IMG/VR virus record: IMGVR_UViG_2778261089_000004 | Length of the DNA stretch: 39,144 bases | Source: a virus | Lineage: Duplodnaviria > Heunggongvirae > Uroviricota > Caudoviricetes | Reading direction: 5' to 3' (one strand) | Shown: positions 1 through 38,341 of the stretch, piece by piece | How the letters are laid out: each line of letters starts with the position of its first letter | How positions within the stretch are numbered: the first letter of the stretch is position 1 | The notes under the pieces: model-generated | Told to the model about the DNA's origin: nothing | Databases searched by the model: none | Seen by the model: the letters and a program-made list of their open reading frames with translations, nothing else | Translations under genes and position numbers: made by a program

Positions 1-768
1 TTATTTTCCTGGTGATTCGGATGATGCGTCATACATCGCGCATAAACACTCATCAATTATCCAGTCATCTTCCCAGACCTGATATTCTGTCATTGGTTCG
101 GGCTGTTTTAGCGGGTTCTCAATCGCTTGCCGCGCTCTTTCTTTCAGTAAAGGATGATTATTTCTAGCCCAGGCATTGATTTGGGTGGTAATGACGTTAT
201 CGATATCGTCCTGGTTATCTCTGATATAATCCTCACAATATCTGTTCAATAAACAGGCAAGAGAAACGGTCGACCAAAAGCCGGGAACTGAATTAATGGC
301 ATCCAGCAATGGCGCAAGAGCGATATCGGCACGGAAAAACATTTCCAGCATATACTGTAATTCGACAGCTTCATCGCCGGATACCCAATCAGTCATATAC
401 TGGCAGGCAAATCGTTGCAAAATTTTCCATTCATCCTCACGCCAATTTTCTTTACTGGCAAGGTTTATACGCCGTAGAGAAAATACTTCGTGAATATTGT
501 CAAACTGCCCCTGTGCAACAAATTCCAGTAAACGCGGCAGAAAATAGCGGACCTCATCGCTATTTTGCGGATCAGGCCCTGGGCTACTATTCCATGCATT
601 GATTAAGGAATACGAGATCGCTCGTAACGATGTACTCCGTAATACCTTTTGTTCCTGCTGACTCAGGCAATATTCACAACAAACCACAAATTTCTGCGGC
701 ACCGGATAACGACGAAAAATATGATAAATCTGCTCAATTAATGCCTGCATGGCGGGGCTGGGTTGCAT
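1..768 (-). CDS. hypothetical protein (255 aa), last gene of a three-gene minus-strand cassette; stop codon is the first three bases of the window
   Basis: Complete ORF; its start lies 3 nt past the stop of the upstream gene (771). No recognisable domain; Cys pair near N-terminus (VVCCEYC). Confidence 0.55.
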   Translation of the reverse strand: MQPSPAMQALIEQIYHIFRRYPVPQKFVVCCEYCLSQQEQKVLRSTSLRAISYSLINAWNSSPGPDPQNSDEVRYFLPRLLEFVAQGQFDNIHEVFSLRRINLASKENWREDEWKILQRFACQYMTDWVSGDEAVELQYMLEMFFRADIALAPLLDAINSVPGFWSTVSLACLLNRYCEDYIRDNQDDIDNVITTQINAWARNNHPLLKERARQAIENPLKQPEPMTEYQVWEDDWIIDECLCAMYDASSESPGK

Positions 769-770
769 AA

Positions 771-1481
771 TTACCCCCTCGCCCGCTGATCGCGTGTAAA
801 CGGTTGATAGACAAAACGAGCATTCGCCGCGTTCAGGCGAATAAGGGCGCTACGCGAAAGGGAAAAGCTGGGGCGAATGCAACTATTGCAGTCTCGACAG
901 CTTTCCTCTGCGCAATTTTCCACTGAGTAATGACGCGTGTAGAGTTTCAGTTCGGCCTGCTTATCGCGAAATCCGCGTAAACTGTTATTGTTATGAAATT
1001 TCCAGGCATCTTTTAAGACCTGAAAGATATAGACATCCTCAATCCAGGAGTCACATTTTTTAAGCGGGCGCTTTGCTATTATCACCCGCTCATCCGGATT
1101 TAGCATCGCCGTAAATTGTACGGTGACGTCATTTGTCGTGTTCAGGTCACATTGAACATCTGGTACATCACTGATATAGGGGTCAAATCCAAAATCAGCA
1201 CCACAGGCACAAAGACGGCTAATGGTGGCGGTATCGAGGGAAAATCCCGGCCATACCTTGCTGGAGGTTAAGCCAATATTTAATGTGACATTATATCGAA
1301 GCAATCCCTCAAGACCGTCAGCACCGACGAACTTTTCCCCTTCATCCAGGGCCTGGTTAATGAGTTGCTGAACAATGCCTTCATCCCAGTATGCCGATTT
1401 GCAGTTGGCAATCGTAATATCCACGCCAGTGAATGGATCAGTACCGACAAGGCTTGCAAATAATGTATTAACTAATTCCAT
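771..1481 (-). CDS. hypothetical Cys-rich protein (236 aa), middle gene of cassette
   Basis: Complete ORF tightly packed between neighbours; C-terminal cluster C-x4-C-x2-C-x2-C (CAEESCRDCNSC) suggests metal binding. No family recognised. Confidence 0.55.
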   Translation of the reverse strand: MELVNTLFASLVGTDPFTGVDITIANCKSAYWDEGIVQQLINQALDEGEKFVGADGLEGLLRYNVTLNIGLTSSKVWPGFSLDTATISRLCACGADFGFDPYISDVPDVQCDLNTTNDVTVQFTAMLNPDERVIIAKRPLKKCDSWIEDVYIFQVLKDAWKFHNNNSLRGFRDKQAELKLYTRHYSVENCAEESCRDCNSCIRPSFSLSRSALIRLNAANARFVYQPFTRDQRARG

Positions 1482-1495
1482 TTTTATTATCCGCC

Positions 1496-3013
1496 TTAAT
1501 GCAACGTTTTATACATCGGCACATAACCTACATCTTCCACCAGGCTCTGCCCCTGCGGCGTTAAAAACCACTCCACCAATTTTTGTGTTTCTGACGTCAT
1601 ATTTTCCCGCGTTACCATAAAGGCATCGACGATATAGGGATATTTGCCGTTGCGAATGTTTTCGGCAGTCGGTGCAATACCGTTAATCGCTAGCAGTTTT
1701 ATATTTTTATCGGCGTTCATTTGTGTTGCGTAATAACGGAAGGTGTAACCTATTGCGTTGTTTGTATTACGGTATTCGGCAACGACTTTAATCATTCCCT
1801 CCATCATACTTGCCACTTCTGTTTCCTGCGGCGAGATCATGCGGACATTTTTCATGACCTGGGATTGCATCACCGTCTGGCTACCAGAGTCTTCCGGGCG
1901 TTGCCAGGTCTGGATCTCCTGATCGTTACCGCCAACCGTGCGCCAGTTGGTAATTGCACCACTGAAGATGTCACGCACTTGTTGTTCGGTCAGGGAATTA
2001 ACCGGGTTATCTACATTGACGATGAAAACAAACGCTTCACGGGCAAAAGGCGTGTAAATCAAAGTGACGCCCGATTCCTCCGCGCGTTTTTTCTGCCCAC
2101 CGGAAGGTTGAGCCACAAAGATAATATCGGCATTACCTTTAACAATCTTGTTATATGCTTCGGGAGTACGAGAGTTCGCCAGATATTCCCATTCGTGAAA
2201 ATCTTCCGGCAAAACGCTTAGTGCATAAAAGGCAGAGGCATAAATGGGGTACGCCGCCGTTGCGCCATCAAGTCGCGGCCAGTTTTGCGTGAACTGAATT
2301 TGCGGTTTACCACGCAGTGGTGTCAGTTGATTATTGAGTTTATCGGGTCGCCAGGCCCAGGTATCAATATTTTCACGCACACCGACGCCGGGATTAAGCT
2401 GTTTATATAAATAAGCCTGGTAACCGGCGACAAAACCAAGCATGAGAAGGATAAACAAGAGAGAATTACGGCAACGTAACCCGGACGTGCCCGTTAAAGG
2501 ATATCTGGTCGGCCAGCCGTACCCCAGCGAAAAACTGATATGCGCGCCAACAGGTATAATGACTAACCACCAGTACTCACCACCGACTAATGAGGCTAAC
2601 AAAACGCCCAGCCAGGGGAGCATAAGATCAGCCAACCAACCCGCTCCCATCTGGCGAAATTGATAATCTGCCAGATGCAGCGCGATTATCCAGACCCCCA
2701 GGGTTAATAATGCGGGTACTAAAAAAAGACATTGTCGCCAGACGGCTATTTCTCTTTTTTCTGGTGCACTATCGTCCGCCCACACTCGCCCCGAGAAAAA
2801 TAGCATTAATGCGCCCAGCGCCAGCATAAAAATGTTGAGCAGAAGGTAAATTGTTGGCGTGATAAAGATATTACAAACTTCAATAATACCGGCAAGTCCG
2901 ACACCCAGCATGGCAATAACCGCCGCCAAAAACTGCGCCAGAATGGGGATGCCGAAAAAAGTCATTACCAGCGAGGTCAAAATCCATTTTCTGTTTTGCA
3001 TTATTCTTTCCAT
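1496..3013 (-). CDS. integral membrane protein with C-terminal PstS-like (periplasmic phosphate-binding-protein-type) domain, 505 aa
   Basis: N-terminal about 230 aa with multiple hydrophobic helices; C-terminal half resembles type-2 periplasmic binding domains of the PstS family (e.g. FSGAITNWRTVGG). Start may be the Met at 3001. Domain call from memory. Confidence 0.6.
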   Translation of the reverse strand: MERIMQNRKWILTSLVMTFFGIPILAQFLAAVIAMLGVGLAGIIEVCNIFITPTIYLLLNIFMLALGALMLFFSGRVWADDSAPEKREIAVWRQCLFLVPALLTLGVWIIALHLADYQFRQMGAGWLADLMLPWLGVLLASLVGGEYWWLVIIPVGAHISFSLGYGWPTRYPLTGTSGLRCRNSLLFILLMLGFVAGYQAYLYKQLNPGVGVRENIDTWAWRPDKLNNQLTPLRGKPQIQFTQNWPRLDGATAAYPIYASAFYALSVLPEDFHEWEYLANSRTPEAYNKIVKGNADIIFVAQPSGGQKKRAEESGVTLIYTPFAREAFVFIVNVDNPVNSLTEQQVRDIFSGAITNWRTVGGNDQEIQTWQRPEDSGSQTVMQSQVMKNVRMISPQETEVASMMEGMIKVVAEYRNTNNAIGYTFRYYATQMNADKNIKLLAINGIAPTAENIRNGKYPYIVDAFMVTRENMTSETQKLVEWFLTPQGQSLVEDVGYVPMYKTLH

Positions 3014-3132
3014 TCTTTCTGAATGGCGAAATTATACTCCCCGAGTCCCCTTGCTGATGCGCCGCGCGATAAACGTACCTATTTCCGTGAGATAAATTAC
3101 ATCGCCGCGGCATTTCAATATCAGAAAAAGAA

Positions 3133-3705
3133 TTACAACTCAGCTTGAGTTTGAAGTTCCTCTACAGGGTGATAACGATAAATCGTCGATATACCGATAT
3201 CGTAAATAATTGCCAACTGTTTTCTGCTATAGCCATTTTTGATCAGCCTTGCTATTTGTTCATGTTGCTCTTTTGTCAGTTTCGGACGACGTCCACCAAT
3301 ACGCCCCTGTGCACGTGCTGCTTCAAGTCCGGCCAGTGTTCGTTCAACTATTAATTCACGCTCCATTTCCGCTAAAGCCCCCATGACGTGAAAAAAGAAA
3401 CGTCCCATGGGTGTTGACGTATCAATGCTGTCTGTAAGACTACGGAAGTTAACCCCTTTTTCCCGCAGTTCCTCAATAAGAGTGATGAGGTGTTTCATGC
3501 TTCTGCCCAGCCTGTCCAGCTTCCAGACAACGAGCGTATCTCCTTCTGATAACGTTCTGAGCAGCTTTTTCAATCCTGGTCTGGCTGACTTTGTTCCGCT
3601 GATTTTATCCTCAAAAATCAGTTCACATCCTGCGCAGTTCAGTGCGTTTCGTTGTAAATCTGTATTCTGGTCATTTGTTGACACACGAATGTAGCCAATT
3701 TGCAT
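3133..3705 (-). CDS. gin: Gin/Pin/Cin/Hin-family serine DNA invertase (190 aa)
   Basis: Start MQIGYIRVSTNDQNTDLQ with catalytic Ser in the RVSTNDQ motif, conserved LVVWKLDRLGRSMKHL and MGRFFFHVMGALAEMEREL, C-terminal HTH; RBS AAGAGGA upstream of ATG at 3705. Track ORF extends to 3840 but internal Met is the likely start. Confidence 0.9.
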   Translation of the reverse strand: MQIGYIRVSTNDQNTDLQRNALNCAGCELIFEDKISGTKSARPGLKKLLRTLSEGDTLVVWKLDRLGRSMKHLITLIEELREKGVNFRSLTDSIDTSTPMGRFFFHVMGALAEMERELIVERTLAGLEAARAQGRIGGRRPKLTKEQHEQIARLIKNGYSRKQLAIIYDIGISTIYRYHPVEELQTQAEL

Positions 3706-3759
3706 GAAAAATATCCTCTTTGTTTTGTTAAAAATACATAGCTGGTATAGGTGGGAGTT

Positions 3760-3785
3760 AAGACGAAAACGTTGGTTTGGGAGAA
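3760..3785. repeat. gix-like recombination site (aagacgaaaacg-tt-ggtttgggagaa)
   Basis: 12-2-12 bp architecture of Gin/Hin crossover sites; inner half ggtttgggagaa is the exact reverse complement of the ttctcccaaacc half of the partner site. Confidence 0.75.
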
Positions 3786-4130
3786 GCGGCGAAAAGGGAT
3801 GTGGGCACAGGAGATAATCAGATACCGGATATGGGAGCATTCGCTTCTGGTTCGGGATGGTTCAGGCTACCAGGTGGATATATTGTTCAGTTTGGCACTT
3901 TTGCAGGAAACACGACCCGCTTTATCAGTGGACACTTCCCTATACCATTCCCTAATCAGCCGATGGTTTCAGTCAGTGTTATGTCTGATGCCGTTCAGTC
4001 AGACCCGTCGATTCCTGCCCCGCAGGTTTTGTCTGTAAATTTTGAACATATCAGTAATTCAGCGTGGCGTGTGGCAACCAGTGATATCTCACAGCAATAC
4101 AGATTCAGTTATATTTCGATAGGATGGTAG
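3777..4130 (+). CDS. alternative tail-fibre C-terminal segment (Sv-prime-like), silent in the present orientation
   Basis: Reading frame runs through the gix site in frame; after inversion it would be fused to the constant N-terminal 162 aa of the tail fibre. No independent ATG or RBS. Confidence 0.6.
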   Translation: MGEAAKRDVGTGDNQIPDMGAFASGSGWFRLPGGYIVQFGTFAGNTTRFISGHFPIPFPNQPMVSVSVMSDAVQSDPSIPAPQVLSVNFEHISNSAWRVATSDISQQYRFSYISIGW

Positions 4131-4573
4131 AAATGCAGAAATATATTTTCAGTGCCGATAAAAATGCGTTTTTCCCTGTGGAGCTTAAAATCGCTTATCA
4201 GGAATCCGGCGAATGGCCCGATGATGGAATCAAAATTGACGACACTGTTGCTGCCGAATTTATGAAGGAAGCACCAGAAGGAAAATACAGAGGTGTCATC
4301 GACGGAATGCCTGCATGGATTGATATTCCACCGCCAACTCATGAGGAACAAATTGCCGCAGCCGAATTGGAAAAGCAGCAATTGATTAATCAGGTCAACG
4401 AATACATAAACAGTAAGCAATGGCCTGGTAAAGCGGCGATTGGTCGCCTGAAAGGTGAGGAACTGGCGCAATATAATTTGTGGCTGGATTATCTGGACGC
4501 ACTAGAACTGGTCGATACTTCCGGTGCGCCAGATATTGAATGGCCTACGCCTCCGGCAGTTCAGGCCAGATGA
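4124..4573 (+). CDS. tail fibre assembly chaperone, alternative copy (U-prime-like)
   Basis: 149 aa; C-terminus GAPDIEWPTPP matches the conserved Tfa C-terminal motif also present in the opposed copy (TAPDVIWPELP). Confidence 0.7.
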   Translation: MVEMQKYIFSADKNAFFPVELKIAYQESGEWPDDGIKIDDTVAAEFMKEAPEGKYRGVIDGMPAWIDIPPPTHEEQIAAAELEKQQLINQVNEYINSKQWPGKAAIGRLKGEELAQYNLWLDYLDALELVDTSGAPDIEWPTPPAVQAR

Positions 4574-5162
4574 CATCCGGCGCGGTTCTGGTATCTGTTG
4601 CCGTCACCGCATCAATGTAATCCAGCACAGCGTTTAGACGGGTTGTTTCTGCCTGCGTCAGCTTCCGTCCGGCCTGTAATTTCAGTTGAATCAGACTGAT
4701 GGAAGCCATTGCTGCATCAATCAGTGACTGGCGCTGTGCTTCTGCCGCTTCTACTGCGGCGCTATGCTGTGCCTCAGTATTCGTCACCCATTTCTCACCA
4801 TCCCATTTATCATATGGCGTTAACGGGGCGATAGTGGTTGTATTTTCAGGGTAATCACCCAGAGCTGTGATTTCTTTCGATTCTCCTGTTTCGGTGCTAT
4901 AGATGATTTCACCGCGATGGTCTGGCACATATTCCCATGAGTTAAAATCTGCAGAACGGCAGATTGCATAACCAGCTTTATGTGTAACTGGTGCATCTAA
5001 ACAAGAACATGCCGGGATGCCGACGCCAACCGCAAGATATTCAGTTGATGTGGAAAGATATTCCCGCGTCTTGCTGTCGTAGTTGTATATGACGACTTCA
5101 CCCGCGACAGTCGCCAGTAGGGCCTCATTCAGTGTGACTGTATTCATGGTATCCTCGCGCAT
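4545..5162 (-). CDS. tail fibre assembly chaperone (U-like), expressed orientation
   Basis: 205 aa; start ATG overlaps the tail fibre stop; conserved Tfa C-terminal motif. Confidence 0.75.
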   Translation of the reverse strand: MREDTMNTVTLNEALLATVAGEVVIYNYDSKTREYLSTSTEYLAVGVGIPACSCLDAPVTHKAGYAICRSADFNSWEYVPDHRGEIIYSTETGESKEITALGDYPENTTTIAPLTPYDKWDGEKWVTNTEAQHSAAVEAAEAQRQSLIDAAMASISLIQLKLQAGRKLTQAETTRLNAVLDYIDAVTATDTRTAPDVIWPELPEA

Positions 5163-6154
5163 TATGCCGCCCTCACGATGTAGTTGAATGCAATATTACG
5201 AGGTCTGTTTTCTGTCGCTGTAGGAACAACTCTTGAGACATCCAAATTAGCGTAAATATGACGATCTGTCATAGAAACTGATGACTTACCTGTAGATTCA
5301 GCTTTTATCACAACGGAATCATACATTCCCTCATCATTCCCAAAAAATGCACCAGAGCCATTGCCAAAAAAATACAGTGATGATATTTCATGCCTTGCAC
5401 CAATTGTCCCCGTGATATTTCTGATTGCATCTCCCTGAGAGTTCAATATAGTTCGGCCCGAATCAACTCCACGCCCGTCATCCCAGCCGCGAATAAATTC
5501 ACCGCGTAAATCAGGCAATTTATTTGTCGGGTAAGCCTTTGCCTGTTCCGGGTATTCTTCAGCAGAAAAAGCTGCACCGTTGCATTTCAGCCAGCCTGTT
5601 GGCGGAGTGGCTGAGGGCCACGGAACAGGCACCCCAACAGGTAATGCAGAGCCTTCTCCCAAACCAAGGTTTTTGACAAACAGCGCAGGCTCAGGAATAT
5701 CTGCGCCGTTCTGGTCTTTAGCCAGCTTTTCCGCCAGCTTGTTCAGTACCGTAGTCGCAAAGTTTGGATCATTACCGAGAGCGTCAGCCAGCTCTTTAAG
5801 CGTATCCAGTGTCTCAGGGGCGCTGCCTGCAAGTGCCGCAAGTGCTTTGGCCACAAACTCCGTCGTCGCCAGCTTTTTGCTGTTATCACCATTTGCAGGT
5901 GTAGGTGCTGTTGGTGTGCCGGTGAATGTCGGACTGGCTTTCGTCGCGTACTGGGTATGCGGGTCAACTGCCGCGATATGTGCAGCCAGGTCTGTTCCGC
6001 TTTTTTCGACCTTCTGTTTGAGGTATGACGTTCGGCTGGCCAGTTGTTTAGCCTGGCGGTTAGAAATTCCGTCAGGTCCGCCCAGAACGGGGTCAGAGAC
6101 CTCAATCTGGTAGATGCCGTCTTCCCACTGCGGGGTTTCGGGTAGATTTGCCAT
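5162..6154 (-). CDS. tail fibre protein (Mu S / P2 H-like), constant N-terminus plus invertible C-terminal domain
   Basis: N-terminal PETPQWEDGIYQIE motif typical of P2 H / Mu S tail fibres; gix site at codon 163. Confidence 0.85.
   Translation of the reverse strand: MANLPETPQWEDGIYQIEVSDPVLGGPDGISNRQAKQLASRTSYLKQKVEKSGTDLAAHIAAVDPHTQYATKASPTFTGTPTAPTPANGDNSKKLATTEFVAKALAALAGSAPETLDTLKELADALGNDPNFATTVLNKLAEKLAKDQNGADIPEPALFVKNLGLGEGSALPVGVPVPWPSATPPTGWLKCNGAAFSAEEYPEQAKAYPTNKLPDLRGEFIRGWDDGRGVDSGRTILNSQGDAIRNITGTIGARHEISSLYFFGNGSGAFFGNDEGMYDSVVIKAESTGKSSVSMTDRHIYANLDVSRVVPTATENRPRNIAFNYIVRAA
5654..5679. repeat. gix-like recombination site (ttctcccaaacc-aa-ggtttttgacaa) inside the tail fibre gene
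   Basis: Near-palindromic 26-mer closely resembling the hix/gix type (ttatcaaaaacc-aa-ggtttttgataa, from memory); lies at about codon 163 of the tail fibre ORF. Confidence 0.8.
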
Positions 6155-6156
6155 AA

Positions 6157-6735
6157 TTAACTGCTCCCGTGGTTGTAACTACCGTCATAACGGGTAGTAC
6201 TGTTGTATCGAATGGCGACAGACTGATATTCCAGACTTGCCAGATGACAGCGAGCCGGAGCAAAGGCAGCAAGCGTCTGACGTAACAGCGCCGCCTGATC
6301 GTTAGTGATGGGTTGTTGAAGGATGACGCGATAGACTGCCCAGGCTTGTGCATCACCATGGACGAAAAGCCCGTTGTACGTGTGTCTGCCGTCATAGCCA
6401 ATCTGCCCCGTACCTTCAATCAGATCCACTTCGCCGAAGCCAAAACGGCGGATAATTTCCCGGATTGACCACGGTGTTCCTTTATAGCGGTGTAGCTCGA
6501 TAGCGGATTTGATAAGCATGCGGCGTACATCGTCCGATTCCGCCAGTTCCCAGCCATCGCCGAACAGCGAGAACTGCTCGCCAAGCCATGGCAGCGCGGA
6601 ACTGTCGACAATATCGACGAGACCGACCATCAGTACGCTCAGGTCGATGTTATCCAGCCGTCCGGCCAGTCTTCCCAGCGTTCTGAGACTGATATCACCC
6701 TCAAGCGGTGGCGGGAGTTGTAGCACCTCAGCCAT
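6157..6735 (-). CDS. baseplate protein, P2 gpI-like / Mu gp48-like
   Basis: 192 aa, position between baseplate J-like gene and tail fibre. Confidence 0.6.
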   Translation of the reverse strand: MAEVLQLPPPLEGDISLRTLGRLAGRLDNIDLSVLMVGLVDIVDSSALPWLGEQFSLFGDGWELAESDDVRRMLIKSAIELHRYKGTPWSIREIIRRFGFGEVDLIEGTGQIGYDGRHTYNGLFVHGDAQAWAVYRVILQQPITNDQAALLRQTLAAFAPARCHLASLEYQSVAIRYNSTTRYDGSYNHGSS

Positions 6736-7831
6736 CGGACACCCCGGTCATGTTAAGAGTGATCGCCGTACAGTTTGCCCATTCGTTTTCTGCCACCACC
6801 CTCAGTGCCGGTGTCACCAGTTCGACCTGGTACACCCCGGAAACGGACAACACGCTGATAATCTGGCTGGGAACAATATCGCGCCCCAGCGTGGCGGTAC
6901 GGGATGCCACCCAGTTCTGTATGGCGCTGTTAGCGTTGTCCTTTACCAACCTTGCATCCTGATCACGATAGATCGTAATCCTGGCTTCAATGGTGTAATC
7001 CACCTGAACAGGTGTTTTAGCCCGCACGGTATCAGTGAGTGGTCTGACTTTTTCGTCAGAACAGAAACTCTCTACCAGAGTGAGGATACTGCTGTCCGGC
7101 AGACCAGTGCTGAGCAGCGGATACAGCTCGACAGTGCCGGGAACGGGAGAAAGAACAGCAACGTCGACAATGCCGGGATGCGCCCCCATAGCATGAAAAC
7201 GGTATGCACCACGGCTTCCGGCATTGGTGAATGACTCCGGGGCCAGCCTGATACGCTCCCGGAGCCGGTCATCGTCTTCCTGCTCTGAACCGCCAGAGCT
7301 GGCCGTCAGATTGGTCACCAGCAGGTCAATGTTATCAATCTCATCGAGTAACTGACTGACCTGCGCCGGTTGCCAGCCGTTGCCAGCGGTACCCGGCTCG
7401 GTACAGGTGGCCGTGACATTGACCAGCAGCAATCCGGCCTTCAGCACCACGTCTGTATCGGTGGCAAAAATAATACTGTCGGAAGCGCTGACGCGGGTGC
7501 CTGCCGGGATCAGCACATCAATGGCCAGTGCCTCATCCACAGAGAACTGAAGTGTGGTGGTGGCAGGCTGCGCGGCAAGGCGGTATACACCGACCAGTTC
7601 ACCGAGGTAATCAATCATCGGCTCACGGGAAAAAGCGACCAGATTCTGCTTCGCCGCCTCCTGTACTGCCACCCTGACCAGCATTTCGCGATAGGCCCAC
7701 AGGTCAATCAGCAGACGTTCAGCCTGTGCCGGGTACAGCGTTTTTCCGGTATCCGCTTCATACTTCGCAATCATTTCTGCCGTGATTTTATCGGCATCGC
7801 GTTCAATAAAATCGGGTTCTGTCAGCGCCAT
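6728..7831 (-). CDS. baseplate J-like protein (Mu gp47 / P2 gpJ-like)
   Basis: 367 aa, conserved position and size. Confidence 0.8.
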   Translation of the reverse strand: MALTEPDFIERDADKITAEMIAKYEADTGKTLYPAQAERLLIDLWAYREMLVRVAVQEAAKQNLVAFSREPMIDYLGELVGVYRLAAQPATTTLQFSVDEALAIDVLIPAGTRVSASDSIIFATDTDVVLKAGLLLVNVTATCTEPGTAGNGWQPAQVSQLLDEIDNIDLLVTNLTASSGGSEQEDDDRLRERIRLAPESFTNAGSRGAYRFHAMGAHPGIVDVAVLSPVPGTVELYPLLSTGLPDSSILTLVESFCSDEKVRPLTDTVRAKTPVQVDYTIEARITIYRDQDARLVKDNANSAIQNWVASRTATLGRDIVPSQIISVLSVSGVYQVELVTPALRVVAENEWANCTAITLNMTGVSDG

Positions 7832-8169
7832 AGCAGTTCCTGAGTACGGGGTTGTCCGTCTGAGCCTTTCCAGCTCACCCGGAGCGTAAGATGTTCGCCG
7901 TCGACGGCGGGTTTAACCGACATAAGCTGGCAGCGGGGTTCCCAGCGCCTGATGGCATCGACGGATTCGCGAACCACATGCGGAATGGCCCGGTCGACAG
8001 GCCAGTCGATATAAAGGTGCAGATTACTGCCGAACTCCGGGCGATGCGGGTCGCTGCCCCGGGGAGTCCGCAGGATGATTAGGATGGACTGCCGGATATC
8101 ATCCAGCCCCCGGACAATTTCGCCGGGAGCCTGCAGAGCCGGTTGCCAGAATACTGAGGTCGTTTTCAT
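7822..8169 (-). CDS. baseplate wedge protein, GPW/gp25-like (Mu gp46-like)
   Basis: 115 aa; overlaps downstream J-like gene; position. Confidence 0.7.
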   Translation of the reverse strand: MKTTSVFWQPALQAPGEIVRGLDDIRQSILIILRTPRGSDPHRPEFGSNLHLYIDWPVDRAIPHVVRESVDAIRRWEPRCQLMSVKPAVDGEHLTLRVSWKGSDGQPRTQELLWR

Positions 8170-8225
8170 GGAGGCAGTATTGCCCCCGGGAAGTAAGCGC
8201 CGATATTAAAGGCGTTTAAGAAGGT

Positions 8226-8753
8226 TCAATGGGAGTGGTGATTAGAGTTCTGACCATCAGCAAATATGTCACCCGTTGCATGGGCGCTTCCGTTGATTTC
8301 CAGATCACCATTGAGTGTCGCGGGACCGTTGATTGTGGTAACTCCCGTGAGGTCAATGTTTTTCCCTTTGAGAGAGATATCAGCGGCAACCTCCACCACG
8401 ATATGCTCAATACCTCCTCTGACCGTCAGCGTATGGGTCGCGCGGTTATAACTGAACTCCGCGCCATCAGCGTATTTCGTACCCCGGACGTTTTTATCAC
8501 TGAACGGCGGTTTATCGACGTCTGAGTACACCGCGCCCAGAATAACACCATCCTCGCCGTTGGCATCGAGCAGCACCTCAACCTGCTCCCCCACGTCAGG
8601 GAGCCAGTAATCCTTGTTATCCTGGGTATTGCGCTGTAGCACGTTAAGCCAGTTTGTGCGCAGATTATCGCATTCAGGCAGACGAACGCGGGCCTGAACC
8701 CTGTCGGCATCAACGGCACTGACCGTACCGACCTGACGGGTGACACCAGTCAT
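8226..8753 (-). CDS. baseplate assembly protein V-like / spike (Mu gp45-like)
   Basis: 175 aa, gpV-like N-terminal OB-fold sequence; position. Confidence 0.7.
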   Translation of the reverse strand: MTGVTRQVGTVSAVDADRVQARVRLPECDNLRTNWLNVLQRNTQDNKDYWLPDVGEQVEVLLDANGEDGVILGAVYSDVDKPPFSDKNVRGTKYADGAEFSYNRATHTLTVRGGIEHIVVEVAADISLKGKNIDLTGVTTINGPATLNGDLEINGSAHATGDIFADGQNSNHHSH

Positions 8754-9904
8754 TTTTTCTTCTCCTTAATCACCGTCGATGTACTGCCATCCGGGTGATA
8801 AACCGTGAGTTTCTGAGTTTTTTGTTTTTTCCCTCTTGTGACTGGCCCCCGTGCCACTTCCAGCTCTGTGGTGTAGCCGCTGTTACGCTCAAACGCATGG
8901 CGGGCAGTGATTATCAGCCATGGACCGGATAACTGTCCAAAGCCCACCAGTTCAATTTTGTTGCCTGCTGTCAGTTGAGGCGTTCCCGTCAGCGTCAGGG
9001 AGCCGTTCTGCTGGTATTCGTTATGTCTGGCCAGTGCTGAATCCGCTTTAATCCGGGCACTGTCCGGGTCGCTGACGCGGCTGTTAACTTTAAGTGAGTC
9101 AGCGCTGGTAACCTTACCACCTTTGAGCTTTTTGTCGCTTTCACGGGTACCACCATCAGCTTCGTAGACGATCAGTTTTTTACTGCTGCTTTTCTGGTGT
9201 TTTACCTTTGCAGATTTATAGACCCGGTTGATGGTGTCACGCAGGGAAAAGCGGGCCACATCCTGCGGTTTTAACTGCCTGACCGGCTCCTGACTGCGCA
9301 GTGTGGCCAGATGAGAAAAAATCAGCTGGTCACTGACCACTTTCACTGCATAACCATACTCGCTGGCCAGCCGGCGCAGAAAACCCACGTCGGTTTCAGC
9401 ATACTGGGTCACCCGGTCGATTCTGATGGACTCAATGCTGCCCACCAGTTTCAGCCGGTGCTTTCTGGCAATCCGCCCCGCAACAGCCGCCAGCGTGGTG
9501 TTCTCAAAACCACGGCTGGATTTAGTCCGCAGAGCACTGTTAACCGAGGTGGCCACCCCACGGATAGCGACAACGGACGCGGGCGAACTCACTTCGATCT
9601 CGTCTATTGAGAATGTACCGCAGGACAGCAGTTTCTCGCCCTGATAACCCATTTTCAGCGTCAGCGTGTCACCCTTGCCCGGATACCACTTATCCAGCCA
9701 GCGGCCATCGGTGTCGTCCAGCTCCACCTCAATGGTATCGGACTCATTTTTGATGTTATCGCTCCAGACCACACGGGTGACATAAGGCGCGATATCAGAG
9801 GTGATGTTTTTCTGCAGATACCACAGCGTGAACACCGGTGTCAGCACATCGCTGACGACGGTTAACGCTGATGCGGCCTGTGCAGTGCTGTTTATCTCAG
9901 CCAT
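8750..9904 (-). CDS. P2 gpD-like / Mu P-like tail or baseplate hub protein
   Basis: 384 aa, size and position match late control D family. Confidence 0.65.
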   Translation of the reverse strand: MAEINSTAQAASALTVVSDVLTPVFTLWYLQKNITSDIAPYVTRVVWSDNIKNESDTIEVELDDTDGRWLDKWYPGKGDTLTLKMGYQGEKLLSCGTFSIDEIEVSSPASVVAIRGVATSVNSALRTKSSRGFENTTLAAVAGRIARKHRLKLVGSIESIRIDRVTQYAETDVGFLRRLASEYGYAVKVVSDQLIFSHLATLRSQEPVRQLKPQDVARFSLRDTINRVYKSAKVKHQKSSSKKLIVYEADGGTRESDKKLKGGKVTSADSLKVNSRVSDPDSARIKADSALARHNEYQQNGSLTLTGTPQLTAGNKIELVGFGQLSGPWLIITARHAFERNSGYTTELEVARGPVTRGKKQKTQKLTVYHPDGSTSTVIKEKKK

Positions 9905-10107
9905 GGGGCAATATCCTCTTCTGTATGGGCATCTTCAGCCTCAATAACCGGGATCAGTAACAACAACCCGGAGGGCAGCACCGGCGTAATGGCCACGTGC
10001 GGATTGGCTGCAATAATCCGGGGATAGCCCAGCGGGTCACCGTAGTACTGCCATGCCAGCGAATCCCAGCGCTCTCCGTCACGGGTAATATGTTCAAGAA
10101 ACATCAC
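9892..10107 (-). CDS. small tail protein, P2 gpX-like
   Basis: 71 aa ORF between U-like and D-like genes; weak sequence support. Confidence 0.45.
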   Translation of the reverse strand: MMFLEHITRDGERWDSLAWQYYGDPLGYPRIIAANPHVAITPVLPSGLLLLIPVIEAEDAHTEEDIAPWLR

Positions 10108-10988
10108 ACACTCCTCGTCAGTATTCTGGCGGCCATTGCACTTAATCCCGGAGACATGCGGTTGAATGCTGTGCCGGCGGCGTTAAGCTGCCCGGAAACG
10201 GTATCCAGAGCACCTGCAATATTTCTTTTGTCCACACCACTCAGCGCCGACTGCGCCTGCTGTACATACGTGGCTGCCTCACTGGCTGTTCTGGCCAGAC
10301 TGATGGCATCGGGCATGGATTCAGAAAGTGCATTAAACGCCGGAACACTTTTCCCCAGAGCCCCGGATATATTACCCAGTCCGCTCATCAGTCCCGGCAC
10401 ACGGGTCAGCGCGACAACAGGGTTACCCTTCATTTTCTGCGCCACCCGAACGGCACTGATAGTGGTCTGTAGTACAGACTGCGCCTGTTTCGCATAGTTG
10501 ACGCCGTTACGGACGAACTGAGCCACCCCGGAAGGCGATGGAACAGCACCAGATATGGCCCCGGCACCGGGAACCTGCCTGCGTATTGCCGGCGGTTGCA
10601 GAGGATTTTTCGGGTCACCGGTGTATTCCCGGAGAGACACGGTGGCACTGACAGCCAGCACGTTACCGGTGCTGTCTGTCTGCTCGCTGGTTGCGGTCAC
10701 ATCGGTAATCACGAACCAGCCGCGATAGTCACCGTTGCCGAAGACCAGCGCCAGTGCCTGATGGGCCTTCATGGCTGTTCGCACTCTCGCCAGCTCCACG
10801 TCGGGCACACAATAATGCTGATGGAAGACCAGGCTTATCTGGATTTCGTCCAGCCTGTCGCCGACGAACTGCAGGCCGGGTTTACCCTCGATGCGGGCAT
10901 GCTCCGCATAATCGACGCCAAACGTGGCCTCGAAGCCGTCCCAGTAGGTAATCAGTTCAAACTCAATATCACCCAGTACGGCAAACAT
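10104..10988 (-). CDS. tail protein with gpU-like N-terminal domain (Mu N-like position)
   Basis: 294 aa; N-terminal GDYRGWFVITDV-type motif; Ala/Ser/Gly-rich C-terminal extension. Confidence 0.55.
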   Translation of the reverse strand: MFAVLGDIEFELITYWDGFEATFGVDYAEHARIEGKPGLQFVGDRLDEIQISLVFHQHYCVPDVELARVRTAMKAHQALALVFGNGDYRGWFVITDVTATSEQTDSTGNVLAVSATVSLREYTGDPKNPLQPPAIRRQVPGAGAISGAVPSPSGVAQFVRNGVNYAKQAQSVLQTTISAVRVAQKMKGNPVVALTRVPGLMSGLGNISGALGKSVPAFNALSESMPDAISLARTASEAATYVQQAQSALSGVDKRNIAGALDTVSGQLNAAGTAFNRMSPGLSAMAARILTRSV

Positions 10989-13453
10989 CAGCTGTACTCC
11001 TTACGTTGTTTCTGAGCCAGCAGACGCTCCAGCATTTTTTCCAGCTCATGCAGGCTCATATTCAGGGCACCAGCCAGCCCGGCAGGCGCTGCGGTTTCCT
11101 TACCATTGAGGAAAAACTGAGGATTAAAGCTGACCTGGATACCGCCAGACGCTCCACCGCCGGTTGCCGTTGCGCCACGGCCTGAATATCCGGCAGCCAT
11201 GATTTCCGGCGACGGGATACGGGGAACATCCGGTGTCATTTCAGCGGCCAGGCGCTGCCCGGCCAGTGCAGCAAGCGGAGTGGTTCGTTGCAGGCCAATG
11301 GCGGCACCCTGCGCGATATTGTCACCAAAGCCTATAAACACGCGACTCGGTGAATGGATGCCCAGCTTTTCGCTGAACCAGTCACTGATGCTGTCACCCA
11401 TTCCGGTTATGCTGGTTTTCAGTGACGCCCATTTGTTTCTGATGCCATTTATCAGCCCGTCAATAAGATGACCACCGAAGTCGGTGAATTTCGCCGGCAA
11501 ATCAACGCCGAGATATTTCAGCGCAGCCGCAAAGGCTTTATAAAGCAGACCTGCCGGAGACCAGTTAACCAGCAGTTTACCAGTTCCCGCGATACCGCCG
11601 TTAAAGGCTTCCTGAATGTCAGCCCAGCGCTGTTTAAACCAGCTACTGACCGCGCCCCAGTTGCGGTAGATAAGGTAAGCTGCTGCCGCGACGGCGGTGA
11701 TAGCGAGACCGATGGGATTCATCATCAGCGCCCGGCCAATCCAGAGAACGGCACGCCCGGCGCTCATAATTCCGCGAACCAGCCCCCCTGAGAGCACACC
11801 ACCCAGTGTTCTGGCTCCTCTGGCGACAGCACCAAAGCCTGTCACCAGCCAGCGGAGTTTACCGCCTTCCCCCAGTGCGAGCGTCAGACGAAGCCAGTTG
11901 GCCCGAAGTAAAACAGCATTTTTCCAGACGCTTACAAAGGGGGAAAGAAGGAGATTCAGCCCAAGCTTGAGACCGATAGTGGCCATCCTGAAAGCGAGTA
12001 ATGCGCCCACAACCTTTATGGTGCTGCTGACGAGCTGCGGATTTGCCGCTATCCATTTGCCAACACTGTCCATTAAAGGAATAAATGTTTCACCCAACTG
12101 GAGCAAAGCCGGACGCAAGGATTGCCCGATGCTGATAGCAGAATCATTAAAGCCGATCTGCATTCTGCGCCAGCGGCCTTCAAGCGTATCATTCTGCTTT
12201 GCAGCATCCTTATCCAGGGTAGAAATTGCAGCCGGAGCATTCATTTCCTGCTTACTGGAAAGGTATTTATCCCAGCCCTGTCGCATTGACAGTAAATGGT
12301 TGACAGTCTGAATATCGGTAAAGACCTCAGCCAGACCAAATGACTCCATGAGTTTCTGCTGACCTTCCTGATCGCCTCTTGCTCCTGCAGCTTTCCATTG
12401 CTGCAAGAACGCTTTGCCTTTACTGTCGATAAAACGGTTGGCAATCATCAGTGAAGCTTCGTACTGCGAAAAACCCTGAGCGACGTAATTCTGCATTGAC
12501 CCCTGGTAATCCACCCCGGCTTTAGCATATTTCTGGATGGTATCTCCGCGGCCCATTGCTGCCAGCCAGTTGGACATATTGGTGACCGCTTCCTCTGCAG
12601 AGCCACTACCTTTACCGACCTCCAGACTGGCAACAATCTGGGTAATCGCATCTTTTCCATAAATACCACGAGCAGCGAAGGCTTTAGCCATACCGGGTAA
12701 TGCTTTTGCCATATCCTTCAGCTCAAATGACCCAAGTTTGGCTCCTGTTGCCGCAATACCAAACGCCTGTTCAAGTTCTTTCGCATCAGTGATTCTGAGT
12801 GCATCGCTGAAGGCATAAGTCATTTTGGCAAGGTCGGTCATATCGGCTTTGGTTGCTGTAGCGGTCTTTCCAAGCATCTCTGCAAACGTTGCTGCCCGTT
12901 CGGGGGCCATACCATCAGCAACTAATTGTCCGACTCCCCCTAACAGAGACTCCTGCAGTTGGTTAACCTTCAGCGAGGCCTGTCTGATAGCCTGGCCAAT
13001 TGCACGTTCCTGTTTTGCATCCAGGTCTCCTGTGACACTGATATCCCGCAACTGTGATTCAAACGAGGCATATTGTTTAACCGAGGCCATGACCGGTGCG
13101 CCCAGCGTTCTGCCAATAGCATAGGTTTCTGCACCCTGACCATAGAGCGCCAGGCGGTTAGCCTTCAACGCATCACCGATGGCTGATACTGCTGACAGAC
13201 GGCGCTGCTGACGTTCAATTTGCTCCATGGTGCGGCTTACCCGCAGCAACTCGCTGTTGAGATGCAGCATCCGGGAAGAACCCAACTGACCATAACGTTC
13301 TGTTGCCCGGGTTAAGGCATTCTGGCGTTCCTGCAGACGGCGGGAGGTATCACCAAGGGAATCAAGGGCGCGTCGGGTGCCACTGACGGCTGAGCGGAAG
13401 CTGCTCCCGACAATGCCGCCAATAATGACGCCGACTGAAAATTCACTGGCCAC
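10988..13453 (-). CDS. tail tape measure protein
   Basis: 821 aa, alpha-helical Ala/Gly-rich, Gly-rich C-terminal tract; GTG start with RBS AGAGGA; position after the chaperone pair. Confidence 0.85.
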   Translation of the reverse strand: MASEFSVGVIIGGIVGSSFRSAVSGTRRALDSLGDTSRRLQERQNALTRATERYGQLGSSRMLHLNSELLRVSRTMEQIERQQRRLSAVSAIGDALKANRLALYGQGAETYAIGRTLGAPVMASVKQYASFESQLRDISVTGDLDAKQERAIGQAIRQASLKVNQLQESLLGGVGQLVADGMAPERAATFAEMLGKTATATKADMTDLAKMTYAFSDALRITDAKELEQAFGIAATGAKLGSFELKDMAKALPGMAKAFAARGIYGKDAITQIVASLEVGKGSGSAEEAVTNMSNWLAAMGRGDTIQKYAKAGVDYQGSMQNYVAQGFSQYEASLMIANRFIDSKGKAFLQQWKAAGARGDQEGQQKLMESFGLAEVFTDIQTVNHLLSMRQGWDKYLSSKQEMNAPAAISTLDKDAAKQNDTLEGRWRRMQIGFNDSAISIGQSLRPALLQLGETFIPLMDSVGKWIAANPQLVSSTIKVVGALLAFRMATIGLKLGLNLLLSPFVSVWKNAVLLRANWLRLTLALGEGGKLRWLVTGFGAVARGARTLGGVLSGGLVRGIMSAGRAVLWIGRALMMNPIGLAITAVAAAAYLIYRNWGAVSSWFKQRWADIQEAFNGGIAGTGKLLVNWSPAGLLYKAFAAALKYLGVDLPAKFTDFGGHLIDGLINGIRNKWASLKTSITGMGDSISDWFSEKLGIHSPSRVFIGFGDNIAQGAAIGLQRTTPLAALAGQRLAAEMTPDVPRIPSPEIMAAGYSGRGATATGGGASGGIQVSFNPQFFLNGKETAAPAGLAGALNMSLHELEKMLERLLAQKQRKEYS

Positions 13454-28584: not shown

Positions 28585-28688
28585 ATCGCCCCACAGGAAT
28601 GCGCTGTGAGCCGACCAAGGTTCAGTCAGTCTCGCGAGACCTGACCAGACTGCCATATTTTTTAATAATTGTAAAAGGCTTACAGATT

Positions 28689-29453
28689 ATGAAAATGCAG
28701 ACATTACCCATCGTGCCGTGGATTGGTGGCAAACGTCGCCTTGCAAAACACATTCTGCCGCTGTTTCCGGCGCATGAATGTTATGTGGAGCCGTTTTGTG
28801 GGGCAGCAGCGCTCTATTTTCTTAAGACACCTGGTAAGCTCGAAGTCATTAACGATATCAATGGTGAACTGGTGAATCTGTACCGGGTGGTAAAGCATCA
28901 CCTGGAAGAATTTGTCCGCCAGTTCAAATGGGCGCTGGTCAGCCGTCAGATCTACAAATGGCTGCAAATCACCCCGGAAGAAACACTGACGGATATCCAG
29001 CGTGCAGCACGGTTCTACTACCTTCAGAAGCAGGCGTTTGGCGGCAAGGTGGCAGAGCACAGCTTCGGTACCTCCACCACATCCCCGCCACGCTTCAACT
29101 TGCTGCGTATTGAAGAAGAACTGTCAGCGGCACACCTGCGACTTTCCAGAACAGTCATAGAACACATGGACTGGCAACAGTGCATTGAGCGTTATGACCG
29201 CCCGCACACGCTGTTCTACTGCGACCCGCCGTATCTGGGTACGGAAGGCTATGGTGTGGATTTTCCTGAAGGGAACTACTCGCGGCTGGCAGAGCTGGCC
29301 CGGTGCATCAGAGGAAAAATGATAATTTCGGTGAACGACATCCCGCAGATGCGCGAGGTGTTCACTGGACTGAACATACAGACAGTGAATATCAACTACA
29401 GTCTGGCGGGCAAATCAACGCCGCGCCGTGAGCTGGTGATTTGCAATTTTTAA
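28689..29453 (+). CDS. dam: DNA adenine methyltransferase, Dam family (orphan, no cognate nuclease seen)
   Basis: PWIGGKRRL, VEPFCGAAALYF, DINGELVNLY and catalytic DPPY motifs match Dam-type N6-adenine methyltransferases; start at internal Met MKMQTLPI. Confidence 0.9.
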   Translation: MKMQTLPIVPWIGGKRRLAKHILPLFPAHECYVEPFCGAAALYFLKTPGKLEVINDINGELVNLYRVVKHHLEEFVRQFKWALVSRQIYKWLQITPEETLTDIQRAARFYYLQKQAFGGKVAEHSFGTSTTSPPRFNLLRIEEELSAAHLRLSRTVIEHMDWQQCIERYDRPHTLFYCDPPYLGTEGYGVDFPEGNYSRLAELARCIRGKMIISVNDIPQMREVFTGLNIQTVNINYSLAGKSTPRRELVICNF

Positions 29454-30066: not shown

Positions 30067-30477
30067 TTAACCCGTATTTTTTAATCTCTCGAACTCTGCG
30101 GACAGCTCCTTAAGCTGTTTTTCCATATTAATCATTCGCTGTTTTTCTTCAGCGCCTCGCAGTAACTCTTTCCGCACTTCTGGATCCAGTTGGTTGAGCA
30201 ACTCTAATAACTTCAGGTCAGATTGGCTGAAATGCTGCTCTTGATTAGTCAACTGTACTTTCTCTACTCCCACAGTTTCCCCTTTACCAGTAAGTAGCCA
30301 ATCTATCGATATGTTCAAATGAGCACTCAATGCAACAAGAGCTTCTGCATTAGGCTCTCGCTCTCCACGTAGATAATTTTGAAGTGAGCGATATGGAATT
30401 TTCGATAAATCAGATAATGCCTTGATTGTCAGACCTTTAGCAACCATCGCTTCGCGCAATCTCTCTTTTATACTCAT
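30067..30477 (-). CDS. prophage repressor, XRE/Cro-C1-type HTH (c-repressor analogue)
   Basis: HTH LTIKALSDLSKIPYRSLQNYLRGEREP near N-terminus, C-terminal coiled coil; divergent from early operon across an operator-like region. Start taken as MSIKERL at 30477. Confidence 0.75.
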   Translation of the reverse strand: MSIKERLREAMVAKGLTIKALSDLSKIPYRSLQNYLRGEREPNAEALVALSAHLNISIDWLLTGKGETVGVEKVQLTNQEQHFSQSDLKLLELLNQLDPEVRKELLRGAEEKQRMINMEKQLKELSAEFERLKNTG

Positions 30478-30565
30478 TTGAACACATCTCAATTTGACAC
30501 ACTCATTCGGGTGTGTACAATAGACCCAATAGAGTACATCATAACCCAACAGGAACACGGTGCAT
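30478..30565. promoter_or_regulatory. divergent repressor / early-operon promoter-operator region
   Basis: Plus strand TTGACA (30494-30499), 16-bp spacer, TACAAT (30516-30521) upstream of the ner-like gene; inverted repeat ACACAC-N8-GTGTGT (30497-30516) overlaps the spacer. Confidence 0.55.
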
Positions 30566-30790
30566 ATGAACAAACAACAAGTTCGAGCACGACTGGTTGA
30601 ACGAGGCAGTAGCCTGCGCCAGTTTGCGCTTAACGCGGGCTATGAGCCACGAACTGTTACCCAGGCTGTTAGCCGCTGGGCAGGCAAAAGTGAACTTCCA
30701 CGCGGTCGTTTGACTTATCGGATTTTGCGAGACCTTTCTGTTGCAATAGGTAAGGAAGTTACCCCCGGTATCCTCAAGGAGGCGTCATGA
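30566..30790 (+). CDS. ner: Ner-like DNA-binding protein (Ner/Nlp family)
   Basis: 74 aa, first gene of early operon divergent from repressor; pattern LRQFALNAGYEPRTVTQAVSR resembles Ner-family proteins. Family call from memory. Confidence 0.6.
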   Translation: MNKQQVRARLVERGSSLRQFALNAGYEPRTVTQAVSRWAGKSELPRGRLTYRILRDLSVAIGKEVTPGILKEAS

Positions 30791-34125: not shown

Positions 34126-34135
34126 GGAGGGAAAC

Positions 34136-35302
34136 ATGCTGGTACTGAAGCAGCAACTGAAAGAGGCCCGTATTCCACAGGCGGTGGTGGCGAGAGCTGT
34201 CGATGTTTCTGAGGCCACGCTGGCCCAGATTGTGAATCATAACGCGTGGCCCCGCACCAGTCCCGGAGAAGTACGCCGGCGTCTTGCGTCCTGGCTGGAA
34301 AGTCAGGGGATTGATACAACGAAGAGTTTTGATGCTGTACAGGGCGCGGCCACGCCCCGTACAGCGGGTACCACAGATAAAACGAGCCTCAGTGAGGAAG
34401 AGAATATGTTACTCAAAAAACAGGTGTTATTTCCAGCAACCAAAAAAGCGTTTGGTCTTTTCCGTGACCCGTTCGCCGACGAAGCCATGCAGGGTTCTGA
34501 TGATGTGTTCACCACCCCGGACATCCGCTATGTGCGTGAGGCGCTGTACCAGACAGCCCGTCATGGTGGATTTATGGCCGTCATCGGTGAGTCCGGTGCG
34601 GGTAAATCCACGCTGCGCCGCGACCTGACTGAACGTATCAACCGCGAGAATGCGCCGGTAATTGTTATCGAGCCATATGTCATCGCCATGGAAGACAACG
34701 ATGTGAAAGGGAAAACCCTGAAGGCAGCAGCGATTGCCGAAGCCATTATCAGTACCATCGCACCACTGGAAAGCATCAGACGCAGTCAGGATGCCCGCTT
34801 TCGCCAGCTGCATCGCGTCCTGAAAGACAGCAGCCAGGCGGGGTTCAGCCACGTTCTGGTGATTGAGGAGGCCCACAGCCTGCCCATTCCGACACTGAAA
34901 CACCTCAAACGCTTTTTTGAGCTGGAGTCCGGTTTCAAAAAACTGCTGTCCATCGTGCTGATTGGCCAGCCGGAACTGGCGACAAAACTGTCTGAACGCA
35001 ATATGGAAGTCCGTGAAGTCGTTCAGCGCTGTGAGGTGGTCGAACTTCTGCCTCTCGACAATAACCTTGAAGAGTTTCTGACGTTCAAACTGCAACGGGC
35101 CGGTAAACAACTGACGGACATTATGGACGCCGGCGCAGTGGATGCCATACGTGCCCGCCTGAGCAATCCGGGAAGTCACCGTAAAAACAGGGTCAGCCTG
35201 CTGTATCCGCTGGCCGTCAGTAACCTGGTAATAGCCGCCATGAATCTGGCCGCTGAAATCGGGGTTCCACAGGTCAACGCTGACGTTGTCAAAGGGGTTT
35301 AA
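34136..35302 (+). CDS. AAA+ transposition ATPase (MuB analogue; TniB/ExeA-like)
   Basis: Walker A GESGAGKST, Walker B-like VLVIEEAH; RBS GGAGGG before ATG at 34136; N-terminal HTH. Confidence 0.8.
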   Translation: MLVLKQQLKEARIPQAVVARAVDVSEATLAQIVNHNAWPRTSPGEVRRRLASWLESQGIDTTKSFDAVQGAATPRTAGTTDKTSLSEEENMLLKKQVLFPATKKAFGLFRDPFADEAMQGSDDVFTTPDIRYVREALYQTARHGGFMAVIGESGAGKSTLRRDLTERINRENAPVIVIEPYVIAMEDNDVKGKTLKAAAIAEAIISTIAPLESIRRSQDARFRQLHRVLKDSSQAGFSHVLVIEEAHSLPIPTLKHLKRFFELESGFKKLLSIVLIGQPELATKLSERNMEVREVVQRCEVVELLPLDNNLEEFLTFKLQRAGKQLTDIMDAGAVDAIRARLSNPGSHRKNRVSLLYPLAVSNLVIAAMNLAAEIGVPQVNADVVKGV

Positions 35303-38136: not shown

Positions 38137-38341
38137 ATCTGTTGTATGTGCCCTGTTCTGGTATTGTTTTGTCGGTTGGTGTACTGCTGAACTGCACCGC
38201 CGTTCAGGGTTTTATTCACGTTACAGTGGTGCTGGCTACTGGATTAGTTGGTCGGTGATGTTCCTGTGCTGGCCTGTGGCGCTTCCTTTATATGTCGATT
38301 ATATCGGTGGCGCAGGTAAAAGGAGCAACGATGATGACTAA
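38126..38341 (+). CDS. small membrane protein (71 aa)
   Basis: RBS GGGGGGA before ATG at 38126; two hydrophobic segments. Confidence 0.4.
   Translation: MTAESVVCALFWYCFVGWCTAELHRRSGFYSRYSGAGYWISWSVMFLCWPVALPLYVDYIGGAGKRSNDDD

Follow-up and report, generated by a model that had tools for sequence, protein, structure and literature searches.

A probable two-state tail-fibre inversion switch at the right end of a Mu-type transposable Escherichia coli prophage

Introduction

In the C segment of phage P1 (invertase Cin) and in the Min system of p15B, small serine invertases of one and the same family swap the C-terminal ends of tail fibres together with their chaperones. Inversion by this family requires a supercoiled substrate and the host protein Fis, which occupies an enhancer located within the 5' portion of the invertase gene. 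Here, we describe a locus of this kind in a stretch of 39,144 nucleotides (nt) from the virus record IMGVR_UViG_2778261089_000004 (IMG/VR; Caudoviricetes), which is referred to in its whole length as the window. Positions 3133-6154 of the window hold a serine invertase gene and, beside it, a 1.9-kilobase (kb) segment that reaches into a tail-fibre gene. We conclude that this locus, which lies at the right end of a transposable prophage of the Mu type in Escherichia coli, is very probably a functional two-state switch that works by site-specific inversion of the Pin/Gin type.

The closest described system, in enzyme, sites and one of the cassettes, is the P segment of e14 in E. coli K-12 (pinE, stfP-tfaP / tfaE-stfE), whose DNA is inverted experimentally at its repeats by PinE, PinQ and PinR (PMC12529663). 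The G segment of phage Mu (invertase Gin; S-U / S'-U') occupies the same place in its genome as the locus described here: in both cases, this is the module that comes last ahead of the right end in a transposable phage. Invertible tail-fibre cassettes have already been listed in systematic surveys of inversions (PMC9881135), and fibre-cassette inversions in prophages are called well known in several papers (including PMC12529663 and PMC9881135).

Results

Over positions 2500-7500, a repeat finder returned a single outstanding inverted repeat, with arms of 21 nt at 3766-3786 and 5653-5673 that are 95% complementary and separated by 1,866 nt. The arms mark two 26-base-pair (bp) crossover sites. 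The left, invertase-side site (3760-3785, minus strand) reads TTCTCCCAAACC.AA.CGTTTTCGTCTT, with its core TT at 3772-3773, whereas the right, fibre-side site (5654-5679, plus strand) reads TTCTCCCAAACC.AA.GGTTTTTGACAA, with its core AA at 5666-5667, and encodes ...VKNLGLGE within the fibre open reading frame (ORF). The two sites stand in inverted orientation, are equal at 21 of their 26 positions and have an identical central dinucleotide; the segment that they flank measures 1,894 bp. The left site is 55 bp from the invertase start codon, with an in-frame stop at 3759-3761. When a 20-nt site pattern was searched with up to three mismatches, exactly two matches were found in the 39-kb window, as against 0.01 expected from shuffles, and none of 100 shuffles held two matches; the sites are therefore not due to chance, and only two are present. 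A third or fourth site, as in a Min-like system, was considered for the window and rejected, since the pattern search gives two only.

The present fibre gene (5162-6154, minus strand) encodes 330 amino acids (aa). It is composed of a constant N-terminal part (5667-6154), which is 99-100% identical in sibling prophages with different cassettes, and a variable C-terminus of the Collar type with 163 unique aa (5162-5653; Pfam Collar, 2e-13). The chaperone of this cassette is encoded on the same strand (4545-5162; Pfam Caudo_TAP, 2e-31) and has 205 aa, or 200 aa if translation begins at the second ATG, and its start overlaps the fibre stop codon (TAATG, 5162-5164). The plus strand carries the alternative cassette, which consists of a silent fibre C-terminus of 114 aa (Gp53-like_C, 3786-4130; Pfam PF21882), lacking both a start codon and a promoter of its own, and a tail-fibre assembly chaperone of 146 aa (4133-4573; Pfam Caudo_TAP, 5e-34). 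Inversion in silico at the core yields an uninterrupted, in-frame fibre of 281 aa. The crossover falls at codon 163 of the fibre gene, and the two fibre forms have their first 167 residues in common, ending in ...VKNLGLGE, because the repeat itself encodes ...NLGLGE. Beyond that point they continue into unique ends of 163 and 114 aa, between which no BLASTP similarity was found at E<=1e-3.

The 146-aa chaperone read from 4133 is on record as an exact protein in 216 blocks of the collection, on several phage backbones, and an exact look-up of the 149-aa version that begins at the ATG at 4124 gave no match; the start of this second chaperone is more probably at 4133, as in public gene calls, than at 4124. 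In NCBIfam, the invertase, the fibre and the chaperones all had no match above the cut-offs. Relatives of the fibre constant part are found in Erwinia, Pantoea, Mixta and other Enterobacterales (89-98% identical) as well as in Burkholderia cenocepacia (55% identical), and several of them carry an invertase and two sites.

An earlier, sequence-only reading of the locus had named the inverted sites at 3760-3785 and 5654-5679 with matching TT and AA cores, a serine invertase beside two opposed cassettes, each with a fibre C-terminus and a Tfa chaperone, and a present fibre of 330 aa. All of this was confirmed, the sites by the repeat finder and site alignment and the cassettes by Pfam. The in-frame fusion to 3786-4130 that it foresaw after inversion also holds, but the shared part comprises 167 aa rather than 162. 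Likewise, the variable ends do differ in length and sequence, with 163 and 114 unique aa in place of about 168 and 115, and the alternative cassette does have its chaperone, for which the proposed start at 4124 is the less probable one.

The invertase gene (3133-3705, minus strand) encodes a Pin/Gin-family protein of 190 aa, within the range of about 185-195 aa of such enzymes, with a Resolvase domain at residues 3-135 (Pfam, 1.7e-51) and HTH_7 at residues 138-180. The mechanically called ORF, 3133-3840, is too long; the true start is the ATG at 3705, which is preceded by AAGAGGA. The catalytic Ser9 is kept within YIRVSTNDQ and aligns with Ser9 of Gin. Judged by its sequence, the protein is placed among the Gin/Hin/Cin/Pin small serine invertases and is much closer to invertases than to resolvases, as it scores E=6e-91 and 306 bits against the Gin structure 4m6f, compared with 3e-32 and 115 bits against gamma-delta resolvase. 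It is 78.9% identical to e14 PinE and 69.9% identical to Mu Gin. The switch had been labelled Gin-type in the sequence-only reading, which was right about the Gin/Hin/Cin/Pin family; within that family, we assign it to the Pin type rather than the Gin type because of its 79% identity to PinE, as against 70% to Gin.

Residues R43, K47, K/R48, K/R51, Q151, R154 and L155 of Hin, which contact Fis or the enhancer, are conserved only in Fis/enhancer-dependent invertases (McLean et al., PMC3798978). Their counterparts in the window invertase are R42, K46, K47, R50, Q150, R153 and L154, among which K46, K47 and R50, together with R42, are the basic residues of helix B, while Q150, R153 and L154 form the helix-1 patch. 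The offset of one residue between the two numberings follows from what we take to be the N-terminus of Hin.

A candidate recombinational enhancer is present in the 5' part of the invertase gene (3621-3683), with two 15-mers that resemble the Fis consensus. The first, TGTCAACAAATGACC (3669-3683), agrees with six of the seven specified consensus positions, and the second, GCGCAGGATGTGAAC (3621-3635), agrees with all seven. Their centres are 48 bp apart, and the proximal 15-mer is 96.5 bp from the left core. The two Fis sites of the enhancer are reportedly separated by 48 bp, a spacing that Johnson and co-workers are said to have described in 1987. Conservation of both 15-mers extends to gin, pinE and nine further invertase genes, and the positions given for the Fis sites are based on the consensus, this 48-bp rule and homology to gin and pinE. 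Across 11 diverse invertase genes, synonymous differences amounted to 0.38 in codons 9-40 and 0.52 in codons 41-135 (Mann-Whitney p=0.005), the kind of reduction that an embedded DNA element would predict; the catalytic motif and 5'-end effects could account in part for the conservation of this region. From these features, we infer that the window invertase would depend on Fis.

We compared the locus with the described systems in turn. The inner half-site and core of e14, TTCTCCCAAACC.AA, are identical to those of the window, whereas the outer half-sites differ. Measured against the recombining repeats of e14 (PMC12529663), the window 16-mer at 5652-5667 matches at 16 of 16 positions and that at 3772-3787 at 15 of 16. 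Both loci share a layout with two convergent tfa genes that overlap by 29 nt. The 205-aa Tfa of the window is 87.5% identical to TfaE and its Collar end 57% identical to the stfE product, while the 146-aa chaperone is 55% identical to TfaP and the Gp53-like_C end has no BLASTP match to StfP. The settings are also different: e14 is a defective lambdoid remnant in which stfE is a pseudogene, whereas the window locus is the right-end module of an apparently complete Mu-type prophage, and the invertase-side site of the window lies outside any ORF, unlike in e14.

The gix sites, taken from the Mu record, align with those of the window at 19 of 26 positions and differ in the core, which is GA/TC in Mu and AA/TT in the window. 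The crossover is located at about codon 170 of Mu S (...IQNLGLQE) and at codon 163 in the window, with (Q/K)NLGL(Q/G)E encoded in both cases, and candidate Fis sites occupy homologous positions in gin and in the window gene. In contrast, the invertible segment is 3 kb long in Mu and 1.9 kb in the window, the window fibres are shorter and unrelated to those of Mu in their variable parts, no com/mom follows the window invertase, and the early genes are divergent from the late ones, which is not the case in Mu. The right site of the window agrees at 22 of 26 positions with hixL, if the latter has the sequence that we presume. The H segment of Salmonella (invertase Hin) has the same 26-bp architecture, the same AA/TT core and a similar enhancer geometry, the hin enhancer lying about 100 bp from the nearer site (PMC3798978). 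However, Hin flips a promoter, whereas the window system flips coding cassettes.

The segment occurs naturally in both orientations. Orientation was counted over the fetched loci that have both cassettes beside an invertase. The Gp53-like cassette is next to the invertase, as in the window, in nine loci (the source contig, which equals L017 and L033; L022; L027-L029; L032; L034-L036), and the Collar cassette is next to it in seven (L019, L020, L021, L023, L026, L030 and L031). Pairs of P2-like prophages whose flanks are 94-99% identical differ by the flip of a 1.9-kb block, itself 99.5-99.9% identical, and the breakpoints of the flipped block fall in 15-18 bp of the sites. In three E. coli genomes with a backbone about 90% identical (L004-L006), the 281-aa fusion is annotated intact and is followed by the 146-aa chaperone, and the other cassette is silent and adjoins the invertase; the Hin-like invertases of these three are only about 70% identical to the window invertase at the nucleotide level. 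A further relative, in E. coli O68:H12 strain 97.3 (L002), is 100% identical to the window outward from 5652 and loses homology inward. In this strain, the right end of the prophage is bordered by fragments of Tn3 and IS4321 and by another recombinase gene. Of 5,426 complete E. coli genomes, 3,115 have matches to parts of the 3-kb region.

Sibling prophages with more than one arrangement of cassettes connect the window enzyme itself with inversion. In these loci (L007-L016, including CP029915.1, CP057281.1, CP083411.1, LT904878.1, CP030936.1 and LT905062.1; locus coordinates about 8050-12600), the invertase protein and the outer half-sites are identical to those of the window, and so is the constant region (100%). 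Their crossover sites number two to six and their Collar-type cassettes up to five, beside only one tfa gene. At a shared chromosomal insertion site, the cassette orders are C A B D, C B' A' D and D' B' A' C' (a prime denotes an inverted cassette). Single inversions interconvert these orders, one of them between the two outermost sites, which are the sites present in the window; the left-site outer half CGTTTTCGTCTT is identical in the siblings whose outermost sites have recombined. It follows that the enzyme is competent in nature, as are both outer half-sites. The sibling locus behaves like Min or a shufflon-type multiple-inversion system and resembles p15B in this respect, whereas the window differs from both in having two sites and two states, and is not a multiple-inversion system. 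Among the siblings, L015 is reduced to one block, and the fibre region of L008 is interrupted by an insertion sequence (IS; DDE_Tnp_1).

The segment is shared well beyond the close relatives of the window. Positions 3769-5672 recur at 99.5-99.8% identity in two P2-like lineages, in a prophage with a Mu gp45-48-type tail and in a Wedge1-type myovirus, which together with the Mu-type backbone of the window gives at least five backbones. When the backbones that share it were compared (L019-L037), the adjacent invertase genes were 76-88% identical and the constant fibre parts could not be aligned. The near-identity of the segment stops inside the 26-bp sites, and a second exchange (mosaic) breakpoint falls in the tfa gene near 4826, within its conserved C-terminal part. 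We suggest, tentatively, that unrelated prophages resident in one cell may pass the 1.9-kb segment between them as a portable host-range module, by site-specific recombination at the crossover sites with Pin-type invertases acting in trans. Ordinary homologous recombination in short conserved stretches is an alternative explanation for its spread. The sharp discordance between the segment and its surroundings agrees with the long-standing notion that host-range modules are also exchanged horizontally, with such sites as the joints.

The boundary of the element was located at 3055. The sequence TGATGCGCCGCGCGATAAACG at 3055-3075 agrees with the Mu right end at 17 of 21 positions and marks the right end of the Mu-type transposable prophage; the invertase gene comes last in this element, where gin stands in Mu. 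Homology with three E. coli relatives, which are inserted in their hosts by proY, by rcsC and among IS elements, begins at 3054/3055, and the empty site in E. coli 13P460A breaks exactly between 3054 and 3055 and continues toward glgP. The stretch 1-3054 belongs to the E. coli chromosome and is 100% identical to many strains; it represents the glpD side and contains a PstS-family gene and two hypothetical genes. The two conserved E. coli hypotheticals (771-1481 and 1-768; 236 and 255 aa) adjoin the membrane-anchored PstS-family protein and have no Pfam match. The prophage is inserted between the PstS-family gene and glgP, positions 3055-39144 are all prophage, and the left end lies beyond the window. 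Relatives are inserted by proY, rcsC, yahJ, csgC and other genes.

Domain matches in the early region include an rve (DDE) transposase (32356-34125), an AAA_22 MuB-like ATPase (34097-35302), Gam (Phage_Mu_Gam, 35602-36132) and GemA (38292-38783). A repressor-like helix-turn-helix gene (30067-30573, minus strand) is found between the early and late genes, and P2/Mu-type head and tail genes lie between the early region and the switch; the gene set of the prophage is full, with early, lysis, head and tail functions all represented. Transcription of the early genes diverges from that of the late genes. This is presumably the arrangement of BcepMu, and a BcepMu-like arrangement is consistent with the 55%-identical relatives of the fibre constant part in B. 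cenocepacia. Gene content and context make the element a Mu-type transposable prophage, which is apparently complete.

Two further observations concern the prophage and its relatives. A D12-class N6-adenine DNA methyltransferase gene (28599-29453) is found between the repressor and the lysis/late region. It is encoded on the opposite strand from the late genes and could be a moron or serve an anti-restriction function. A related prophage, in L006 (NZ_CP132021.1, E. coli JCH8249 "plasmid unnamed"), was deposited as a 40,540-bp circular plasmid that also holds fragments of the host genes that flank it in the GON1437 chromosome, carbamate kinase and the yahJ amidohydrolase. Rather than a true plasmid, this is apparently Mu-type DNA, packaged or replicating and with host flanks, that the assembler circularised.

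Discussion

For the switch, we propose the standard course as the most likely. The 190-aa serine invertase would bind both 26-bp sites, one within the fibre ORF and one just upstream of its own gene, and host Fis, sitting on the enhancer in the 5' part of the invertase gene, would most probably join the enzyme and the two sites in an invertasome. Staggered cuts at the central AA/TT, followed by rotation of the subunits and with them of the strands, would then invert the 1,894-bp segment. Since the fibre promoter, the start codon and the first 167 codons lie outside the segment, only the cassette joined to them would be expressed, with its chaperone translationally coupled. In the present state, the constant part, the Collar-type end and the 205-aa Tfa would give the 330-aa fibre, and in the other state, the constant part, the Gp53-like end and the 146-aa Tfa would give the 281-aa fibre. 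A population of lysogens would release two kinds of virions that differ in their receptor-binding tips. The two ends, each with its own chaperone and each from a different Pfam family (Collar and Gp53-like_C), would imply two receptor specificities, by analogy with Mu and P1.

The sequence-only reading had interpreted the locus as an invertible fibre switch, and while its structural observation is confirmed, this interpretation is supported: the junction is in frame, and both orientations of the segment exist in public genomes with breakpoints inside the sites. Several observations nevertheless weigh against a switch that is still in working order. For the exact window fibre, a single assembly is on record, GCA_002486995.1, which shows one orientation, and inversion in that lysogen was not observed. 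The outer half of the left site is degenerate and equals that of the right site at only 7 of 12 positions. A simple promoter and terminator scan of 3000-6300 gave nothing above shuffle expectation and no convincing sigma-70 promoter for the invertase. Decay is also found in the lineage, as the sibling invertase in strain 97.3 (NZ_CP061758.1, 6001-6574) is frameshifted; the switch of that prophage is probably locked.

The single recorded orientation, the missing promoter-like site upstream of the invertase and the frameshifted sibling gene would all suit a frozen relic, in which the architecture has been inherited, the segment no longer inverts and only the 330-aa Collar-type fibre is made. We consider this unlikely, given that the invertase ORF remains intact, that siblings with permuted cassettes carry the identical protein, that the sibling inversions use the same degenerate outer site, and that intact ORFs are kept for both the silent cassette and its chaperone, with 99-100% identity to copies that are expressed elsewhere. 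We infer that the switch is active in the GCA_002486995.1 lysogen.

A different role is conceivable for a segment that does invert. In the e14 P segment, the chimeric product StfE2 has been shown to block receptors, with invertases acting in trans (PMC12529663), and the window sites share the inner half-site and core of that segment. The window locus might chiefly be an anti-phage device for the host or the prophage, in which a chimeric fibre fragment formed after inversion blocks receptors, and not a host-range switch. We regard this as very unlikely. The e14 element is cryptic and both of its sites lie in ORFs, so that inversion produces two chimeric genes, whereas the window prophage has its full gene set, and the stop at 3759-3761 is in frame, with no upstream ORF to which the silent cassette could be fused. 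That the inverted repeat is a mere by-product of paralogous fibre fragments sharing an NLGLGE coding motif, which is conserved in Mu S too (68% over 25 aa of the constant part), is scarcely credible and effectively refuted already by the breakpoint data, since homology between relatives ends precisely at the sites and flipped copies of the segment have their breakpoints within them, while the cores are identical and the outer half of the left copy is non-coding yet conserved with e14-type sites.

A functional host-range switch remains the reading that we prefer, and it adds little to what is known of the mechanism, as inversion by Gin, Cin, Pin and Hin is textbook biology. The tail-fibre switch of the window is an intact, ordinary example of a textbook phage device and is no surprise for the specialist. 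Its use is partly one of annotation: the silent half of a switch comprises the 99-aa "gp53-like" ORF together with the second tfa gene, and the invertase is more than a generic "recombinase family protein". In addition, assemblies of strains that carry such prophages may legitimately differ by a 1.9-kb inversion. Beyond annotation, the comparative data provide a clean example of host-range cassettes that are traded among unrelated prophages exactly at recombination sites.

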